This document shows positions 3,357-62,899 of a stretch of 64,000 nucleotides of DNA, one piece after another. This DNA is from Candidatus Portnoybacteria bacterium. GTDB taxonomy: Bacteria > Patescibacteriota > Minisyncoccia > Portnoybacterales > GWB1-42-6. Location of the stretch: the NCBI GenBank assembly GCA_028688325.1, contig JAQTYI010000001.1:168820-232819 (forward strand). The letters are read 5' to 3'. The notes under the pieces were generated by a model. It made no database searches and was not told the origin of the DNA. It saw nothing but the letters and a program-made list of their open reading frames with translations. A program made the position numbers and the translations under genes. The first letter of the stretch is position 1. Every line of letters starts with the position of its first letter.

Positions 3357-3701
3357 CTGCCTTTTCTGATATCCGATATCCCGAATATTTAGAATTTTTG
3401 AGTTCGGATGTCGGATATCGCCGAATTTGATTTAATTAATTTTTACAAAATAAAAAACCCGCGAGACGATTAGTCCCCTTCGGGTTTTTCGCGAAATACC
3501 GGTTGTTTTTTTCTGTCTTTATTGTATGCTTTTTTCGAAATAGGTGTCAATGCGGATATATTGTGCGCGCAGCATATCCGATATATGCGCATCCATACAA
3601 CCGATATGATACTGAAAAATCCCCAAAACAAGCCAAAAAACGCATATTGCGACATTCGTGCATTTTTTATCTTTTTTATTCATAGAAACCTCTTCTTTAA
3701 C

Positions 3702-3755: not shown

Positions 3756-4018
3756 AAAAATGCTTTTCTTGATAAACCGATATGCCGTTTTTTGGCTTAA
3801 AATAAGCATTTTTCGCTGTATCGGTTTTTTTATGATTTTTTATCCGATACGCCGGGCTTGACAAGATTTTAAAAAAACCTAAAATGAAAGCAGGACAATA
3901 AGTCCGGATTTCTAACAGACGGCCCCGCTTCGGCGGGGTTTTCTGTTTCACCGCGCCGAAGCTCGCAGCAATAACGGAGATGCGGAGGCGGGTTTTTCTA
4001 TTTCCGGTAAAAGTATCC

Positions 4019-4070
4019 GATGTCCGACATCCCGGATATTAAGGATCCCAAACCCCGGATGTCGGACATC
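4019..4070. repeat. GATGTCCGACATC-type hairpin repeat.
   Basis: GATGTCCGACATC-CCGGATATTAAGGATCCCAAACCCCG-GATGTCGGACATC. Confidence 0.7.
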
Positions 4071-4205
4071 ATAGAATGATACCGCTTACTTAAGATGACG
4101 CACCTCGCCGCCCTACAAATCTATCGCTTAACTATTTTCTATTGATTATAAAAACCCGCCTAATGGCGGGTTTTTGATTCTCAATTTATCGCTCTATTCT
4201 CTTTT

Positions 4206-16882: not shown

Positions 16883-16898
16883 AAATTACTTTAATAAC

Positions 16899-17052
16899 CG
16901 CGCATGGCAAAAATTTTATCAGAAAATAAAGTTGAGCCGAGTGTAAAATTTGCGTGCCGTGGTGGGGCCCCGACCGTCAGGTCGGGGCGTTGCGGATAGC
17001 AAATTTAGTGAGGCGAAACTTATATTTTCTTAAAATTTTATGCCCGCGCGGG
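16899..17052 (+). mobile_element. MITE-like repeat, family A, copy 1.
   Basis: About 150 bp with imperfect terminal inverted repeats CGCGCATGGCAAAAATTTT ... AAAATTTTATGCCCGCGCGG. The core hairpin is GGGGCCCCGACCGTCAGGTCGGGGCG. Highly similar to 44298..44448 and 56341..56492. Confidence 0.6.
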
Positions 17053-26940: not shown

Positions 26941-27216
26941 AAGAATTTTATTAATCTCAAGTGAGGATTCACTTTTCTGAAACGCTCAGTTTTGCGAGCG
27001 GGCATGGTTCCGCCATAGGCGGAGAGCGAGCAAAACTGGCGAGTGAAATTTTCCACGCCGGGGAAAATTTCACGATTTCAGGAAGTTAATCCGAGCGAAT
27101 ATTTTATCGTCGCGCGGCGGTTTTTCTGGTTCTCTGGCGTCTACCCCGTAATTTATACGGGGCCCGGGCAAAAGAGAACGAAACAATTTCACGATTTTAA
27201 AAAGTAAATCCGAGTG

Positions 27217-31180: not shown

Positions 31181-31846
31181 TCAGCTCATCAGAAAGGCAA
31201 TCAAACTCGCCACCATTAACAAGAAATACACCGAGGAAAAAACTTTAAAAACTTTCTTACTCCATTCGACGGCGGCGGCGAAGGCGGCGAAGGCGAAGGC
31301 GGCGAAAGCGAAGGCGGTGGCGGCGGTGGCGGGGGCGGCGGCGGCGATGGCGGCGAAAGCGAAGGCGGTGGCGGCGGTGGCGGGGGCGGCGATGGCGGCG
31401 GCGGCATTGAATTTTCTAAAAAATACCGACATCCCCATCAGAACGACCGACAACACCCACAACACCAGATAGGGGCTAAACTTAATCTTCGGCTCCCCCT
31501 CAACGCCGCGCACCAGATGTATGCCTTGGGCATCGTAGATGATGCCTACAACCACGACAGGAGTATTCTTGATATGGAATAATCCTTCACGGGCAAACCG
31601 CACCTCTTCTGGCTTAACCGGCACGACGACGCCCGGTTTGGCATACGCCTGTTTCCAGGCGTCGCCGTAGGCGAGGACATCGTCGGCAATAACAACCCTC
31701 GTCTGCTTCCACTGTTCCGGCGGGCGGGAAGCCCGCAATCCGCCATTGCTCCCCACCTCAACGGTGGCGGCGCCGGCGATACCAACAAACACGATAACGG
31801 CAATGGCGATAAACATCATCACAACAGCTCTTCGCGCTTTCTTCAT
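31181..31846 (-). CDS. Hypothetical membrane protein with an Ala-rich tandem-repeat tail.
   Basis: N-terminal signal/transmembrane segment. AAIAAPATAATAFAFA repeats are encoded by a GC-rich tandem DNA repeat at 31262..31400. Confidence 0.5.
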   Translation of the reverse strand: MKKARRAVVMMFIAIAVIVFVGIAGAATVEVGSNGGLRASRPPEQWKQTRVVIADDVLAYGDAWKQAYAKPGVVVPVKPEEVRFAREGLFHIKNTPVVVVGIIYDAQGIHLVRGVEGEPKIKFSPYLVLWVLSVVLMGMSVFFRKFNAAAAIAAPATAATAFAFAAIAAAAPATAATAFAFAAFAFAAFAAAVEWSKKVFKVFSSVYFLLMVASLIAFLMS

Positions 31847-32010
31847 CTCATTCTCCTTTCTCTCTGTTTTTCCAGTCCGTTCCTTATTAGTGCTCTAAAA
31901 TAGAGCTTTTTAAGTTGCTACCCGTTAGCTTTTTCTGTTTTTTTATTTTAACATACCTGACCTATATTTGTCAATAGTTGAACTGGAATTCCCGAAATCC
32001 GCGCCTCTTG

Positions 32011-32080
32011 CCAGGAAGTAGAAATTCGGCCCTATACTGATTTTGTCGCCTACGGCGACAGCTGAATTTTCACTTCCTGG
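32011..32080 (+). promoter_or_regulatory. Conserved inverted-repeat element upstream of rpsA (copy 1 of 2).
   Basis: CCAGGAAGTAGAAATTCGGC ... GCTGAATTTTCACTTCCTGG with an inner hairpin GTCGCCTACGGCGAC. Homologous to 39448..39516 upstream of hup. Confidence 0.45.
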
Positions 32081-32328
32081 CTTGCCAAAAATTCTCTTTT
32101 ACCTTATACTAACCGAGTATTAAGCGCCGAAAAAACATTGCGAATAAGAAATAACAAGGTGATTTTCTCCTCCTCTTAATTTAAGAGGAGGCCGGGAGGA
32201 GTTATAATCTGCAATCTTTTAATTTATAACTCACCCTAACCCTCTCTTAACTTAAGAGAGGGAATAATTCCCTTTTAATCAAATTCGTATATTATAATAA
32301 TTAAAAAACGGCGTTATTATCGTTTTAA

Positions 32329-36767: not shown

Positions 36768-37817
36768 ATGTCCGCCCAGCGGCTGGACAAATTTTTACAA
36801 GAAAAGTTTCCGCAATATTCCCGCGCCTTTATCAAGGAACAGATAAAGCTCGGGAATTTTTTGGTTTACCCCGAGCAGAGCCGAGGGGTTAATGGAGAAA
36901 AAGTTAAGCCCTCTTATATTTTGCGCCAAGGCGACCAAGTCGCCTTGGCGCCGGGATTTAATTTACCCGACGCCGCGCAAATTTTACCCAATCCCGCCAT
37001 CAAGTTGGATATCATTTTTGAAAATGACGATGTTATCGTCATCAATAAACCGGCGGGATTATCAGTCCATCCGCGGCAAGACAAAAACGGCTTGCCCCTG
37101 CTTCAGGAAATAAATACGGCACTCGTTAGCGGATTGCTGGCATATTATCCGGCGATTACGGATGCGGGAGATATATTAAATCCTCCCCGGTCCTCCCTAA
37201 AGGGAGGGAGTAAAATCAGTTCCCCTCCTTTAGGAGGGGTTAGGCCAAAGGTCCTGGAAGGAGGAGATTTTTATCCTGCTAATATCCGTCCCGGCATCGT
37301 GCACCGCCTGGACAAAGACACTTCCGGCGTGATGATAATCGCCAAAAACCAAGCAAGTTTTGACTGGCTCAAAAAACAATTCAAAGAACGGCAGACAACA
37401 AAAAAATATCTGGCACTGGTCCATGGCTTGCTGAAGATTAAAGAAGGAGAGATTAAAACGCTGCTACACCGCGCAGTCTCCGACCCGACCAAACAGAAAG
37501 TCTCAAAGAACGAAGGAAAGGAAGCAATAACAGGATACAAGGTCATTAAGGAATTTAAGGGCTATTCACTGATTGAAGCCAGCCCCAAAACCGGCCGTTT
37601 GCACCAGATACGCGTGCATCTGGCGCACCTGAGCCACCCCGTGGCCGGCGATGCCAAATACGGCGATAAACGCCTGCCTATTTTGCCTGGCTTAGACCAC
37701 CAGTTCCTGCATGCCCAAGAGCTGAAAATAACCCTTCCCGGCGGCTCAAAAAAGACATTTTTTGCGCCTCTGCCGGCCGATCTGCAAGCCACTTTAGACA
37801 CCCTTGCCGGGAAGTGA
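36768..37817 (+). CDS. rluD: RluA-family 23S rRNA pseudouridine synthase (RluD-like), carrying an in-frame palindromic-element insertion.
   Basis: S4 domain (MSAQRLDKFLQEKF), VINKPAGLSVHP, and RPGIVHRLDKDTSG. An approximately 33-aa insert NPPRSSLKGGSKISSPPLGGVRPKVLEGG lies before the HRLD motif. Confidence 0.85.
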   Translation: MSAQRLDKFLQEKFPQYSRAFIKEQIKLGNFLVYPEQSRGVNGEKVKPSYILRQGDQVALAPGFNLPDAAQILPNPAIKLDIIFENDDVIVINKPAGLSVHPRQDKNGLPLLQEINTALVSGLLAYYPAITDAGDILNPPRSSLKGGSKISSPPLGGVRPKVLEGGDFYPANIRPGIVHRLDKDTSGVMIIAKNQASFDWLKKQFKERQTTKKYLALVHGLLKIKEGEIKTLLHRAVSDPTKQKVSKNEGKEAITGYKVIKEFKGYSLIEASPKTGRLHQIRVHLAHLSHPVAGDAKYGDKRLPILPGLDHQFLHAQELKITLPGGSKKTFFAPLPADLQATLDTLAGK

Positions 37818-37932
37818 AAGTTTGGCTGCCGTCCGCGGCGGCAAATTATTGGGTGGCCAAACTTCTACTTCCCGGCTTGAAAGAATATAAATAATATGAT
37901 AATATCTATTCGTAATTAGAGGCAACCCAAAT

Positions 37933-39407: not shown

Positions 39408-39447
39408 AAATAAAAAATGGAATATTTAATGTTTTACCTCGACCTTT

Positions 39448-39516
39448 CCAGGCAGTAGAAATTCGGCTGGCGCTTGCAGCGCCAAAATCCAAATAAGCCG
39501 AATTTTCACTGCCTGG
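39448..39516 (+). promoter_or_regulatory. Conserved inverted-repeat element upstream of hup (copy 2 of 2).
   Basis: CCAGGCAGTAGAAATTCGGC ... GCCGAATTTTCACTGCCTGG with an inner hairpin GGCGCTTGCAGCGCC. Confidence 0.45.
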
Positions 39517-40504: not shown

Positions 40505-40666
40505 CGCCCATACGAAAAATGACAATTTATTGTCATCCCGAACGAAGTGAGGGATCTCTGGCGAATGCCAGACCTGTTGCGCGGATCTCCGCCTAACGGC
40601 GGATCCCACGAGATCCCTCGCTACGCTCGGGACGACACTTCATGTCGACTTTATCATCGCGCGAGG
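40505..40666 (+). mobile_element. MITE-like repeat, family B, copy 1.
   Basis: About 160 bp, bounded by CCGCCCATACGAAAAAT ... TTTATCATCGCGCGAGG. The internal long hairpin is TCCCGAACGAAGTGAGGGATCTC / GAGATCCCTCGCTACGCTCGGGA. It is 90% identical to 61126..61286. The track ORF MRDLWRMPDLLRGSPP here is a translation of the repeat. Confidence 0.6.
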
Positions 40667-44297: not shown

Positions 44298-44448
44298 CGC
44301 GCATACGAAAAATTTTGATAGAAAATAGCAATGAGCCGAGCGTCTAAATTTGCGTGCTGTGGCGGGGCCCCGACCGTCAGGTCGGGGCGTTGAGGATAGC
44401 AAATTTAGCGAGGCGAGTTCTATTTTCTCAAAATTTTATCGTCGCGCG
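44298..44448 (+). mobile_element. MITE-like repeat, family A, copy 2.
   Basis: CGCGCATACGAAAAATTTT ... AAAATTTTATCGTCGCGCGG with the core hairpin GGGGCCCCGACCGTCAGGTCGGGGCG. Confidence 0.6.
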
Positions 44449-44623
44449 GGAACTCTTTTGCTACTTTTCTGGTTACAGAAAAGTAGATGAGATAATACTA
44501 TGCGAATTGAACCTGGATTCCCGCTTTCGCGGGAATGACAAATCAAGCTATAAACTATACCAAGAAGCTCACCATCAACCCCGTAAAATCCCGCTACGCG
44601 GGACCACGGGGCAAGCAACGCCG

Positions 44624-49185: not shown

Positions 49186-49204
49186 ATCATTTAAAAAAGT
49201 TTAT

Positions 49205-49337
49205 TCCGACATCCGATGTCCCAAATATTGGGCATTTTGCACCCAGGACATCGGATGTCGGAATATTGAATTTAATCTGTCGACATCCGACGACCTAAAA
49301 TTCAGAATTCTTTAATATTCGGGTTGTCGGATGTCGA
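49205..49337. repeat. Two tandem copies of the GATGTCCGACATC-type hairpin repeat.
   Basis: CCGACATCCGATGTCC-(24 nt)-GGACATCGGATGTCGG, followed by TCGACATCCGACGACC-(31 nt)-TTGTCGGATGTCGA. The first loop contains CAAATATTGGGCATT. Confidence 0.7.
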
Positions 49338-49343
49338 AAAGTT

Positions 49344-52272: not shown

Positions 52273-54906
52273 CTACACCACAATATTCACCAGCTTCCCC
52301 TTCACAAAAATCACTTTCTTGGGCTCTTTGCCTTCCAGCCACTTAATAATATTGATGTCAGACATCGATAGTTTCTTGGCTTCGTCTTCCGAGATATCGG
52401 CCGGCACAGTCAAGATGGCCCGGACTTTGCCGTTGATTTGCACGGGCATCTGGATAGTTTCATCTTTCACCATCGCGGGATTGAATTTCGGCCAGGACTG
52501 CTTAAAAATTGACTCGCTATCTTTTTCCTCGGATTTATCCTCCGAAGCATTCTTGCCCGCCGAAGCTTTAGCGGAGGCGGGAGCGAAGGAGGACCAAAGC
52601 TCTTCCGCCATATGCGGGGCAAAAGGCGCCAGCAATATCAAAAAGGCCTGGGCCGCGCCACGGGGCATAACATTAAATCGTATAATGAAGTTTATAAAAA
52701 TCATCATTTGCGAAATTGCGGTGTTAAAGCGCAGATTCTCAATGTCTTCCGTGACTTTCTTGATGGTTTTGTGCAAAAGCTGAGGCATGCCTTCGGGCAC
52801 ATCCTTGCATCCCTCGCCGCAGTCCGTCAGATCGGCTTTATGGTATAAATTCCAAACCCGCTCCAAGAAGCGAACGATGCCGACAATTCCCTTGGTGTTC
52901 CAGGGCTTCATATCTTCCAGCGGGCCCATAAACATCTCAAACATGCGCAGGGCGTCAGCGCCGTATTCTTTAACCACATCATCGGGATTTACGACATTTC
53001 CCTTGGACTTGCTCATCTTGGTGCCGTCCTCCGCCAAAATTATTCCCTGGTGGCGCAACTTCAAAAATGGCTCGTCAAAATTGATATAGCCGAGTTTATG
53101 CAGAACTTTGGTGAAAAAGCGCGCGTAAAGCAGATGCAAAACGACATGCTCCGCCCCGCCGATATACAGATCCACGGGGAGCCATTTTTTGAGCATTTCC
53201 TTGGAAGCGAATTCCTTGTCATTTTTGTTGTCGGAGTAACGCAAATAATACCAGGAAGAGCAAACGAAAGTATCCATAGTGTCCGCTTCCCTACGGGCCG
53301 GCCCGCCGCATTCGGGACATTTAACATCCTGAAATTTTTTGGACTTGGCCAGAGGCGATTCGCCCGTGGGCATAAAATCCACATCATCGGGCAAGCGCAC
53401 GGGCAGATCTTCTTCCGGCACGGGAATCTCTCCACACTTATCGCAATAAATTATGGGAATCGGCGCACCCCAATATCGTTGGCGCGAAACCAGCCAATCG
53501 CGGAGCTTATAATTGATAACCTTTTTCCCTATTCCCTCTTTTTCCAGCCACTTTGCTATTTTTTCACGCGCCTTTTCCGAGGTTAGACCGTCGTATTCGC
53601 CGGAATTGGTCAAAATACCATCTTCAACAAAAGCTTCGTCATCCTGAGCGCCAGCGAAGGATCTATTTTTAGATTCTTCGTTCCGCTTCGCTTCATTCAG
53701 AATGACAAAATTGATAGGTAGTTTGAATTTCTTCGCAAACTCAAAATCCCGCTCATCATGCGCCGGGACGGCCATCACAGCTCCCGTGCCGTAATGCGCC
53801 AAAACAAAATCGCTCGCAAAAAGCGGAATGGCCTGCTTGGTGAAGGGATTTTTAACTTTCACGCCTTCCAATTCCACGCCGGTTTTTTCTTTAGCCTCGG
53901 TTTGGCGCTGCAAATCGGTTTTCTTTTTGGCCAGGGCAATATATTTTTCCACTTCGCTCCAATTGCTAATTTGAGATTTTAATTTTTGCACCAGTTCGTG
54001 TTCAGGCGCTATCAGCGCGAACGACATGCCAAAAACCGTGTCCAGACGGGTGGTAAAGACCTCAAGAAAAAGATTGTCATCCTGAGCGCCAGCGAAGGAT
54101 CTTTTAGATTCTTCGCCCTTCGGGCTCAGAATGACGGGAAGACGAAATTGCGCTCCCTCGCTTTTGCCTATCCAATTTTTCTGCGCCGCTTTGGTAGAAT
54201 CGGGCCAATCAAGTTTTTCCAGGCCTTCAAGCAGACCGGAAGTTATTCGCCCGTCCTTCGCATCTCCGCATCTTCGCTGTCGCTCCGAGCTACGAGCTTC
54301 GGAGGGCTCAATAAACTTCGTTATCGAGAAATACCACTGTTCCAAATCCTTTTGTACGACCTCGTTGCTGCAGCGGTCGCACACTCCCCCTTCGGCCTGC
54401 TCGTTGGCCAGCACGGTCTGGCAATTATCGCACCAGTTCACTTTCCCTTTCTTTTTATACGCCAAGCCGTTTTTGTAAAGCAGCAAAAAAAACCATTGCG
54501 TCCATTTGTAATATTCCGGGTCGGAAGAATTCACCTCGCGCGACCAATCATAAGAAAAGCCCAGCATATTCATCTGCTTTTTAAAGGTTGCGATGGCTTT
54601 TTTGGTGGTGGCGGCGGGATGCACTTTTGTTTTGATGGCGAAATTTTCCGCGGGCAAACCGAAAGCGTCCCAACCCTGCGGATGCAGAACATTTTTGCCG
54701 CAAAGTCGCGCGTAGCGCGACATAATATCGGAAGCCGTGTAGCCCTCAACATGGCCGATATGCAAGCCGTCGCCGGAGGGATATGGGAACATATCCAAGA
54801 TGTATTGCTTGGGCTTATCACTTTTATCGTCCGCCGCGCAAAGTTCCGGGTGCTTGGTCCATTCTTTCTGCCACTTTTTTTCTATTTTGGCGTGGTCATA
54901 TTTCAT
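52273..54906 (-). CDS. leuS: Leucine--tRNA ligase, carrying two in-frame copies of a palindromic element that encode SFAGAQDD.
   Basis: HIGH (PYPSGDGLHIGH) and KMSKS motifs and an editing domain. The inserted elements are at 53638..53710 and 54074..54138. Confidence 0.95.
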   Translation of the reverse strand: MKYDHAKIEKKWQKEWTKHPELCAADDKSDKPKQYILDMFPYPSGDGLHIGHVEGYTASDIMSRYARLCGKNVLHPQGWDAFGLPAENFAIKTKVHPAATTKKAIATFKKQMNMLGFSYDWSREVNSSDPEYYKWTQWFFLLLYKNGLAYKKKGKVNWCDNCQTVLANEQAEGGVCDRCSNEVVQKDLEQWYFSITKFIEPSEARSSERQRRCGDAKDGRITSGLLEGLEKLDWPDSTKAAQKNWIGKSEGAQFRLPVILSPKGEESKRSFAGAQDDNLFLEVFTTRLDTVFGMSFALIAPEHELVQKLKSQISNWSEVEKYIALAKKKTDLQRQTEAKEKTGVELEGVKVKNPFTKQAIPLFASDFVLAHYGTGAVMAVPAHDERDFEFAKKFKLPINFVILNEAKRNEESKNRSFAGAQDDEAFVEDGILTNSGEYDGLTSEKAREKIAKWLEKEGIGKKVINYKLRDWLVSRQRYWGAPIPIIYCDKCGEIPVPEEDLPVRLPDDVDFMPTGESPLAKSKKFQDVKCPECGGPARREADTMDTFVCSSWYYLRYSDNKNDKEFASKEMLKKWLPVDLYIGGAEHVVLHLLYARFFTKVLHKLGYINFDEPFLKLRHQGIILAEDGTKMSKSKGNVVNPDDVVKEYGADALRMFEMFMGPLEDMKPWNTKGIVGIVRFLERVWNLYHKADLTDCGEGCKDVPEGMPQLLHKTIKKVTEDIENLRFNTAISQMMIFINFIIRFNVMPRGAAQAFLILLAPFAPHMAEELWSSFAPASAKASAGKNASEDKSEEKDSESIFKQSWPKFNPAMVKDETIQMPVQINGKVRAILTVPADISEDEAKKLSMSDINIIKWLEGKEPKKVIFVKGKLVNIVV

Positions 54907-56340: not shown

Positions 56341-56492
56341 CGCGCATACGAAAAATTTTGCCAGAAAATAGCAACGAGCCGAGCGTCTAAATTTGCGTGC
56401 TGTGGTGGGGCCCCGATCGTCAGGTCGGGGCGTTGCGGATAGCAAATTTAGTGAGACGAGTTCTATTTTCTCAAAATTTTATCGTCGCGCGG
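56341..56492 (+). mobile_element. MITE-like repeat, family A, copy 3.
   Basis: CGCGCATACGAAAAATTTT ... AAAATTTTATCGTCGCGCGG with the same core as the other two copies. Confidence 0.6.
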
Positions 56493-57370: not shown

Positions 57371-57423
57371 GATGTCCGACATCCAAAGATTAAAACGCAT
57401 TAATATTCGGGATGTCGGACATC
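57371..57423. repeat. GATGTCCGACATC-type hairpin repeat.
   Basis: GATGTCCGACATC-(27 nt, containing AATATTCGG)-GATGTCGGACATC. Confidence 0.7.
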
Positions 57424-57435
57424 GTAAAATTGGTA

Positions 57436-61125: not shown

Positions 61126-61286
61126 CCGCCCATACGAAAAATAACAATTTATTGTCCTCCCGAACGAAGTGAGAGATCTCTGGCGAATGCCAGACCCGTT
61201 GCGCGGATCTCCGCCTGATGGCGGATCCCGCGAGATCCCTCGCTACGCTCGGGACGACACTTCGTGTCGATTTTATCGTCGGGCGG
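61126..61286 (+). mobile_element. MITE-like repeat, family B, copy 2.
   Basis: CCGCCCATACGAAAAAT ... TTTTATCGTCGGGCGG; the interior is 90% identical to 40505..40666. Confidence 0.6.
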
Positions 61287-62835: not shown

Positions 62836-62880
62836 TGGTTAATTCTTAAAAACTGGCGTCATTCCGCGGCCGCAGGCCGA
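62836..62880 (-). terminator. Rho-independent terminator for the Nif3-like gene.
   Basis: GGCGTCATTCC-GCGGCCGCAGGCCGAG-GAATGACGCC, with a T-run on the minus strand. Confidence 0.55.
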
Positions 62881-62899
62881 GGAATGACGCCAAGCTAAA

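Follow-up and report, generated by a model that had tools for sequence, protein, structure and literature searches.

The leuS gene of a Candidatus Portnoybacteria bacterium (assembly GCA_028688325.1, contig JAQTYI010000001.1) carries two short in-frame segments that, with a probability we put at roughly 70%, are members, lacking an open reading frame (ORF) of their own, of a widespread family of small selfish DNA elements, each element consisting of a pair of hairpins and the family being associated with a GIY-YIG nuclease. All positions refer to the analyzed 64,000-nt stretch of this contig (nt 168,820 to 232,819), hereafter the window. The initial annotation of the window had described the segments as two in-frame copies of a mobile palindromic element, each encoding SFAGAQDD within an otherwise intact leucyl-tRNA synthetase (LeuRS). 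Our analysis bears out the in-frame placement, the peptide, and its location in the editing domain; the boundaries moved by a few nucleotides, and the element, which folds strongly compared with shuffled sequences, turned out to be not a simple palindrome but two self-folding hairpin modules in inverted orientation.

The host gene (52273..54906, minus strand) is an intact ORF of 877 amino acids (aa) matching the Pfam families PF13603, PF00133, and PF08264 (editing, catalytic, and anticodon-binding domains), with the editing domain spanning residues 243-455. Its top PDB match, over the full length, is the Thermus thermophilus LeuRS (1h3n, E = 1e-222), and it shows 100% identity to a LeuRS from a Candidatus Portnoybacteria genome. 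The HIGH, KMSKS, and TTRLDT motifs are all intact in the translation, and the protein combines the HIGH and KMSKS class I core with the CP1 editing domain and the anticodon-binding domain, as is characteristic of bacterial-type LeuRS.

The two segments share an exact 26-mer, GTCATCCTGAGCGCCAGCGAAGGATC. With up to three mismatches allowed, its only two occurrences in the window are still those at 53638-53663 and 54076-54101, and shuffled sequence yielded 0 matches. The complete elements have the boundaries GTCATYCTGA...TCAGRATGAC and are referred to as copy A (53638..53706, 69 nt; aa 401-423, VILNEAKRNEESKNRSFAGAQDD) and copy B (54076..54135, 60 nt; aa 258-277, VILSPKGEESKRSFAGAQDD); the end of copy A had previously been placed at 53710, and copy B at 54074 to 54138. 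The encoded peptides, VILN…SFAGAQDD and VILS…SFAGAQDD, lie in two loops of the editing domain and, given that the ORF is intact, are presumably translated. On either strand, both copies fold with predicted energies of -25 to -33.5 kcal/mol (z -4.1 to -6.3), values that none of 200 shuffled sequences matched.

Each copy consists of two arms. Arm 1 of copy B (54076..54101, plus strand) reads GTC-ATCCT-GA-GCGCCAGC-GA-AGGAT-C, and arm 2 (54107..54135), read on the minus strand, GTC-ATTCT-GA-GCCC GAA GGGC-GA-AGAAT-C. In copy A, arm 1 (53638..53663, plus strand) is identical to that of copy B at 26/26 nt, and arm 2 (53672..53706, minus-strand reading) is GTC-ATTCT-GA-ATGAAGCGAAGCGGAAC-GA-AGAAT-C. 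Both are mixed-arm elements, with an ATCCT/AGGAT stem on one arm and an ATTCT/AGAAT stem on the other. Copy B occupies the turn of the first β-hairpin of the editing domain, about 10 residues ahead of TTRLDT, and copy A replaces a 13-residue variable loop (VIKSxDGKSSIEK) late in this domain. Mapping onto structure through the 1h3n alignment and an AlphaFold model, which was used for the editing domain only (modeled at a predicted local distance difference test score, pLDDT, of 80-89) because its overall quality is too poor for fold searches, placed both inserts in editing-domain loops, in segments that score below 50 and are predicted to be disordered: residues 264-277, which are flanked by strands 250-260 and 280-285, and residues 409-420.

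Comparison with 25 LeuRS orthologs (69-83% identical) and, at the DNA level, with seven orthologous leuS genes shows that the two segments are insertions, because most orthologs lack both. The gaps in the alignment with the T. thermophilus LeuRS fall exactly at the two segments; a typical empty site B reads AQFKMxI-EGSDxxxEVFTTR, a typical empty site A reads LPIxEVIKSxDGKSSIEKEAYTEDG, and the gene denoted P0008 (P-numbers designate the LeuRS sequences or genes compared) carries the empty-site DNA ...ATGTTGATTGAAGGGAGTGATGAAAGA.... An ancient duplication within LeuRS shared by the whole phylum, named in the initial annotation as the scenario that would overturn it, is thereby excluded. There is next to no chance that such a duplication, or mere coincidence, accounts for the encoding of SFAGAQDD by both segments in one domain: besides the absence from most orthologs and the lack of matches in shuffled sequence, the DNA motif is found outside genes, too, and in different phyla, and we reject this explanation.

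Site B is filled by the same family, at the same position, in P0004, P0012, P0014, and P0015, all of them related Portnoybacteria-type LeuRS genes; copy B is old. Site A is filled by the hairpin-pair family in the window genome alone among the orthologs compared. At site B, P0001 (the LeuRS identical to that of the window) and P0015 have a short form of 60 nt in which left arm and center agree, and P0012 and P0014 have a long form of 93 nt whose left arm is ATTCC/GGAAT. Sorted by right arm and neighboring host codons, P0001 instead falls with P0012, and P0004 with P0014 and P0015. In P0005, a different subfamily (ATTGC/GCAAT; GTCATTGCGAGCGAAGCGAAGCAATC...) occupies junctions identical to those of P0001. 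These mosaic groupings and the subfamily swap point to recombination or conversion between element copies rather than to simple vertical descent. Host codons adjoining the element were also lost in some lineages: an 18-nt host stretch, ATTGTTACAAAAGATTCT, is present in P0015 but not in P0014, P0001 and P0012 lack the corresponding codons too, and site A is short of 13 host residues. The net gain in length is therefore smaller than the element.

The two copies have one arm and part of the center in common, and the tip of the other arm differs (GCCCGAAGGGC in copy B, AATGAAGCGAAGCGGAAC in copy A). Neither the fetched loci nor viral contigs contained the exact arm variant of copy A, and that of copy B was found in ortholog P0015 only. 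Tip forms resembling that of copy A were found in two unrelated metagenome loci (L272 and L279). The latter finding bears on the possibility that copy A arose from copy B by ectopic recombination or gene conversion inside leuS, with no separate insertion from elsewhere in the genome. The identity of one arm over 26/26 nt, the partly matching center, and the occurrence of this subfamily, within the 64-kb window, as two copies in a single gene are all compatible with such an origin. We nevertheless consider it improbable, given the different tip with its counterparts in unrelated metagenomes, the lack of homology between the flanks of copies A and B, and a spacer that differs by 3 nt. Two independent insertions, as originally proposed, are thus supported.

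The inserts could, alternatively, have been co-opted, the peptides serving LeuRS (for example, through contacts with tRNA or the editing domain) or the mRNA hairpins regulating leuS translation or stability. The retention of the site B insert across several lineages, the strong hairpins in the mRNA, and the extra inserts and whole domains found in many LeuRS proteins of the candidate phyla radiation (CPR) could be read in this way. However, it is the hairpin that is conserved and not the peptide: the difference between AGAQDD in P0001 and VNTQDD in P0015 is due to a compensatory GC to TA change in the stem of an arm tip. Moreover, unrelated palindromes occupy the same LeuRS sites in other lineages, the inserts are predicted to be disordered, and elsewhere the family is mostly intergenic, all of which makes co-option very improbable.

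The history of leuS that we favor, in which the segments are selfish elements, would be as follows. A first element would have entered the gene at the turn of the first editing-domain β-hairpin before several Portnoybacteria-type lineages diverged; later, and in the window lineage only, a second, different family member would have entered the variable loop late in that domain, and the host loop residues beside the inserts would have been trimmed after insertion. Persistence would reflect filtering for an open frame, for lengths that are multiples of three, and for short hydrophilic surface loops. Each strand of the element has one stop-free frame, in which GTC ATY CTG AGC reads V-I-L-S; the second and third frames meet TGA, TAG, or TAA. 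The open frame, the lengths of 60 and 69 nt, both divisible by three, and the position of both sites in loops would make the inserts tolerable to LeuRS.

LeuRS in this clade carries other inserted sequences as well. Two further lineage-specific in-frame inserts, PSEARSSERQRRCGDAKDGRITS (54238-54306, aa 201-223) and ASAKASAGKNASEDKSEEKDS (52501-52563, aa 782-802), are extra relative to T. thermophilus and most orthologs; as candidate members of the hairpin-pair family they were rejected, folding no better than shuffled sequences. Within the first of these, nt 54264-54294 are 81% complementary to 3957-3987. At the same two positions, other orthologs contain differing short GC-rich inserts, with peptides such as SFAKATDGR, SFAKASEDK, and PSTTLRAG. 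Unrelated short palindrome-derived in-frame peptides were observed in P0002, P0018, P0032, P0038, and P0013 (SPSKGKG...EGEGEGG, LLKGGEGG, PAFGHPSSSEEG, and, near the N-terminus, SFDGLRTKM), and an ARLRQGFGGQ insert directly follows the conserved cysteine pair (CxKC) in a LeuRS ortholog. LeuRS of this clade seems to be a recurrent sink for several kinds of small repeats. On a larger scale, many CPR LeuRS homologs (P0003, P0006, P0007, P0020, P0022, P0036, P0037, P0064-P0068, and others) are 950-1285 aa long and contain whole extra domains, namely, alpha/beta hydrolase (PF00561/PF12697), NUDIX (PF00293), Ham1 (PF01725), and PF06821.

The arm, 25-35 nt long, consists of (T)GTC, a 5-nt stem (X5), GA, a short tip with a GNA loop, GA, the complement of X5, and C(T); the element comprises two such arms in inverted orientation and a variable spacer. 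Besides the X5 types found in leuS, the variants ATTGC, ATTTC, ATTCC, ATCCC, ATGCT, ATCTC, and ACCCT were identified by a generalized arm finder, which requires 5/5 stem complementarity. The tips are mini-hairpins of their own (GC-GNA-GC, AC-GNA-GT, CC-GNA-GG, or GCCC-GAA-GGGC), with 1.49 nested pairs compared with 0.39 in shuffled sequences. Across 240 loci, conservation ends at (T)GTCA...TGAC(A), with nothing conserved beyond. Elements are 45-139 nt long with no bias toward multiples of three, and their centers are unconserved, ranging from 5 to 80 nt. Target-site duplications are absent from 105/116 elements and, likewise, from both copies in leuS.

Two unbiased tests of covariation were performed. 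Within arms, the pyrimidine:purine position of the stem is complementary in 407 of the 420 arms, where the search patterns had allowed all four combinations. Independently of the arm finder, the 75 nt upstream of 78 GIY-YIG genes selected through the protein only were aligned with MAFFT. This alignment recovered the arm (TGTCATTCCGAnCGnAGnGAnGAATCTT) and contained 96 double-change cells compared with 42.5±7, with a covariation score of 0.356 versus 0.202; none of 500 shuffles reached either value, and slid controls stayed at or below 0.162. These tests show that each arm is a covarying hairpin. In 40 of the 70 complete elements, the arms differ in type, so that arm-to-arm pairing is mismatched at those positions; the element is two hairpin modules rather than one long palindrome. 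The heptamer d(GCGAAGC) flanked by sheared G·A pairs forms an unusually stable DNA hairpin, and this type of stability hints that the arms could be recognized as DNA structures. An apparent similarity to the 5' end of 16S rRNA (GCTCAGGATGA) was dropped as probably coincidental.

Repeat searches, which the initial annotation had suggested, revealed related copies in the window and well beyond it. A 107-nt intergenic sister element is present at 40531..40637 and again at 61152..61258, in each case inside a copy of a 169-nt repeat (D3; 92% identity between the two copies); at 40531..40637, one arm has a perfect ATCCC/GGGAT stem, the other is imperfect (GTCCC/GGGAT), and the center holds two further small hairpins. 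The arm pattern GTCATYCTGAGYGYYAGCGAAGRATC, which represents only 32 sequences, matched at least 120 stretches in species-representative genomes. The matches listed include Acidobacteriota, Deltaproteobacteria, Chloroflexota, several CPR groups, Clostridia, Bacteroidales, Synergistota, Cyanobacteria, Omnitrophota, Nitrospinota, Elusimicrobiota, Coxiellaceae, and Pirellulales, and some are on megabase chromosomes; a looser pattern matched at least 120 viral-contig stretches. The family thus spans many phyla and is not lineage-specific. A perfect 59-nt element had no match among the cultured plasmids of PLSDB or the cultured phages of INPHARED, and an Rfam scan of 53400-54400 at E values up to 10 yielded chance-level matches only (E of at least 3). 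In genomes, only 12% of the arms lie inside long open frames, compared with 76% of random positions. Outside LeuRS, in-frame copies were found in MurB (Micavibrio), DcuC (Bacteroidales), and an SPP1-type phage portal protein. In the open-access literature, including papers on GIY-YIG proteins with repeats or MITEs (miniature inverted-repeat transposable elements) and on UPF0213/YhbQ/COG2827, we found no description of the hairpin-pair family.

Scanning the genome stretches with the arm pattern for genes between distant arm pairs yielded no transposase but revealed small GIY-YIG ORFs between arms in four genomes: one each of Saccharibacteria, Ruminococcaceae, and Rubricoccaceae, and one more. 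These relatives were detected with phmmer, a stricter regular expression having given one ORF. A gene adjoins an arm in 4 of the 120 genome stretches listed, so that gene-less elements far outnumber gene-carrying ones. Metagenome contigs were then searched with the alignment of the four GIY-YIG proteins: 592 of 600 candidate stretches encode GIY-YIG relatives, and the best 80 loci were examined for arms. An arm lies within 150 nt of the gene in 72 of these 80 loci, and the nearest upstream arm is in plus orientation and no more than 120 nt from the start in 53, compared with a local background (arms more than 400 nt from the gene) of one arm per ~6 kb. A clean bracket of plus arm, ORF, and minus arm has a median gap to the start of 26 nt and a median unit length of 379 nt. 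In these sequences, the arms are shown to be tightly associated with a small GIY-YIG gene.

The encoded protein (~90 aa) is a bare catalytic domain without a DNA-binding domain and matches PF01541 with E values of 1e-12 to 3e-18. It combines the GIY and YIG motifs with the catalytic Arg, His, Glu, and Asn, as in UPF0213-like GIY-YIG proteins; the gene is not part of the leuS elements themselves. Residues Y7, Y18, G20, R28, H32, E65, and N84 are invariant; Y7, Y18, R28, H32, E65, and N84 match the catalytic set of I-TevI. Among solved structures, the UPF0213 proteins 1zg2 (E = 4e-8) and 1ywl are the nearest relatives, followed by weak SLX1 matches. In two metagenomic homologs (L318, 2001-2273, and L321, 2001-2276), a single in-frame stop was observed at otherwise conserved positions; these may be decaying copies or reflect a variant genetic code.

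The gene-carrying form of the family would be a unit of ~380 bp, with the same arms on both sides of a gene for a ~90-aa UPF0213/SLX1-like GIY-YIG nuclease. The nuclease would recognize and cut extruded or single-stranded hairpins, and repair from other copies would spread arms and swap them between copies. The driving role of the nuclease, and the way it would act, are inferred. As a tentative proposal, to which we give somewhat less than even odds, these elements form a previously undescribed, multi-phylum class of minimal selfish DNA, organized similarly to REPIN-RAYT systems (described below), in which ~380-bp units, with a UPF0213-type GIY-YIG nuclease as their sole product and a GNA-triloop hairpin arm on each side, coexist with far more numerous gene-less pairs such as those in leuS, and cutting followed by repair copies and shuffles the arms. 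If true, cutting and recombinational repair would account for why a 26-mer is conserved across phyla, why elements with mixed arms exist, and how one subfamily came to replace another at identical junctions in leuS.

Several observations weigh against the interpretation of the leuS segments as members of a nuclease-associated mobile family. The mobility asserted in the initial annotation fits the distribution of the family and the contrast between filled and empty sites, but movement itself, be it transposition or excision, was not observed. GIY-YIG enzymes are hydrolytic, and to our knowledge none has a strand-transfer or DNA-joining activity, so that the "paste" step is left unexplained. The clean bracket was found in only 25 of the 80 best loci, and other layouts occur. 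Neither the window nor the related Portnoybacteria contigs yielded a canonical nuclease unit; their GIY-YIG ORFs are distant relatives only (27-31% identity, hhalign ~95%) without canonical arms, and the two in the window adjoin tRNA genes. Both copies of the exact leuS subfamily are in one gene, within the 64 kb analyzed (~8% of the genome). The X5 counts of the arm finder are by themselves no proof of covariation because the finder demands a complementary partner, and the LeuRS model is poor overall, with a mean pLDDT of 58.

Some of these points feed the main rival interpretation, that the nuclease gene is a free-standing homing-endonuclease parasite that lodges in, or targets, pre-existing palindromic repeats as abundant landing sites, the repeats themselves being spread by something else, such as an unseen transposase or host replication and repair. 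In addition to the variable gene and arm layouts, the low number of genome stretches with a gene beside an arm, and the presence of leuS elements without a canonical unit in Portnoybacteria-type DNA, this interpretation is compatible with one metagenome locus (L156) in which the gene sits between two complete short elements and not inside one. Against it, the unconserved and variable centers offer no obvious homing site, the lack of a DNA-binding domain favors recognition of structure over recognition of sequence, and no transposase gene was detected between distant arm pairs. On balance, we regard the parasite scenario as unlikely and retain the selfish hairpin-pair family with its associated nuclease as the preferred explanation.

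In-frame palindromic insertions in essential genes have classically been a Rickettsia curiosity; Ogata et al. reportedly described in 2000 the Rickettsia palindromic elements (RPEs), located in-frame in protein-coding genes. The RPEs are discussed in PMC3184786. The phenomenon described here resembles the RPEs: in both cases, a short palindromic repeat is in frame in genes, including essential ones, forms an extra surface loop, resides in a bacterium with a small genome, and has both genic and extragenic copies. The leuS segments show a defining RPE-type feature, in-frame insertion into a conserved protein at surface positions, with translation likely from the intact ORF. The RPEs, however, are ~100-150 bp long, are confined to Rickettsia and its relatives, and have no enzyme gene, whereas the leuS family is 45-140 bp long, is present in many phyla, has a GIY-YIG gene linked to it, and consists of two hairpin modules with GNA loops; the distinction from the RPE-1 to RPE-8 consensus families is drawn by size (60-69 nt in leuS compared with roughly 100-150 nt) and by host taxon.

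The architecture resembles that of the REP (repetitive extragenic palindromic) sequences, their mobile inverted doublets (REPINs), and the REP-associated tyrosine transposases (RAYTs) (PMC3116915, PMC2817692, PMC3733652). Both types of systems comprise a short imperfect palindromic unit, a mobile inverted doublet, numerous and mostly extragenic copies, and a small enzyme gene flanked by the repeats, and in both, the hairpins are likely recognized as structures. The 20-40-nt imperfect palindromic units and the inverted doublets of REP/REPINs have their counterparts here in the within-arm covariation and the inverted pairs. The partner gene differs, encoding a GIY-YIG nuclease (PF01541) instead of the HUH/Y1 transposase of REPINs; no RAYT was recognized at the repeat-flanked gene, although no search aimed at RAYT genes was made. 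REP units end in a GTAG or CGTC tag (PMC3733652), whereas the conserved outer end of the arms is (T)GTCA. Unlike REPs, moreover, the motif is conserved across phyla and not per species, and in-frame genic copies exist.

Like MITEs (PMC10969869, PMC11602168), the elements are small, multi-copy, mostly intergenic, and ORF-less, with terminal inverted repeats, and share their ends with a longer, gene-carrying relative. They differ from MITEs in the lack of a target-site duplication and in that each "terminal inverted repeat" is a self-folding hairpin with within-arm covariation; the ends are not shared with a transposase-encoding insertion sequence, given that the longer units encode only the ~90-aa GIY-YIG nuclease and no DDE or other transposase. 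Finally, the nuclease resembles free-standing GIY-YIG homing endonucleases (I-TevI and Seg-type) and UPF0213/SLX1-like proteins in its full conserved catalytic core, with UPF0213 proteins as the nearest solved relatives, and in its selfish-gene context. Unlike those endonucleases, it is only ~90 aa long, lacks a DNA-binding domain, is not located in an intron or a phage gene cluster, and is flanked by conserved hairpins that are also abundant without the gene.

One element family accounts for in-frame insertions in the LeuRS of a CPR bacterium and, in other phyla, in MurB, a transporter, and a phage portal protein, which makes it a general source of loop insertions in conserved proteins, and a datable one. 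A large class of spurious peptides in metagenome protein sets, such as VILSEAKDL, HPERSEGS, and SLRMT, is likewise explained by the arm motifs. If the link to the GIY-YIG gene is causal, the ~380-bp unit would be the smallest autonomous-looking bacterial mobile unit and a second, independent system of an enzyme and a hairpin doublet beside REPIN-RAYT.

The two window GIY-YIG ORFs that adjoin tRNA genes are both on the minus strand. The one at 15198-15470 (PF01541, E = 9e-12) lies beside tRNA-Glu (15119-15191) and is followed by a ~38-nt partial duplicate of this tRNA gene (about 15486-15523) and a CCACCC-GAA-GGGTGG hairpin, so that the region 15119-15523 looks like an insertion into or next to a tRNA gene with partial target duplication. 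The other (8454-8786; PF01541, E = 1.5e-13) directly adjoins tRNA-Ser(gct) (8750-8842); a hairpin rich in GC, GGCGCCCCGAACCG...CGGTTCGGGGCGG, lies between the ORF and the tRNA gene.

Other repeats are also abundant in the window. A near-perfect hairpin at 62854-62892, TGGCGTCATTCCGCGGCC...GGCCGAGGAATGACGCCA, contains a GTCATTCC/GGAATGAC motif in a single-hairpin form and is possibly a solo or variant arm. The window also contains a separate palindromic family, based on GGATGTCGGACATCC, in seven or more copies, among them 3363-3404, 4005-4084, 12522-12552, 49202-49340, and 57400-57431. Another family, CCAGGCAGTAGAAATTCGGC, forms inverted pairs 27-29 nt apart (15582, 32007-32081, 37803-37876, and 39444-39516), and a 152-nt repeat is present in three copies that are 66-95% identical (16898-17049, 44298-44449, and 56341-56492). 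A shorter motif, TTTATCGTCGCGCGG(C/G)GGTTTTT, has seven copies, also at 27103, 40650, and 61272, partly flanks the intergenic sister elements, and could be a promoter or a terminator. A GGC/GAA-rich tandem repeat with periods of 9, 12, and 15 nt (31261-31410) is probably low-complexity coding sequence, rich in Gly and Glu or in Ala and Pro.

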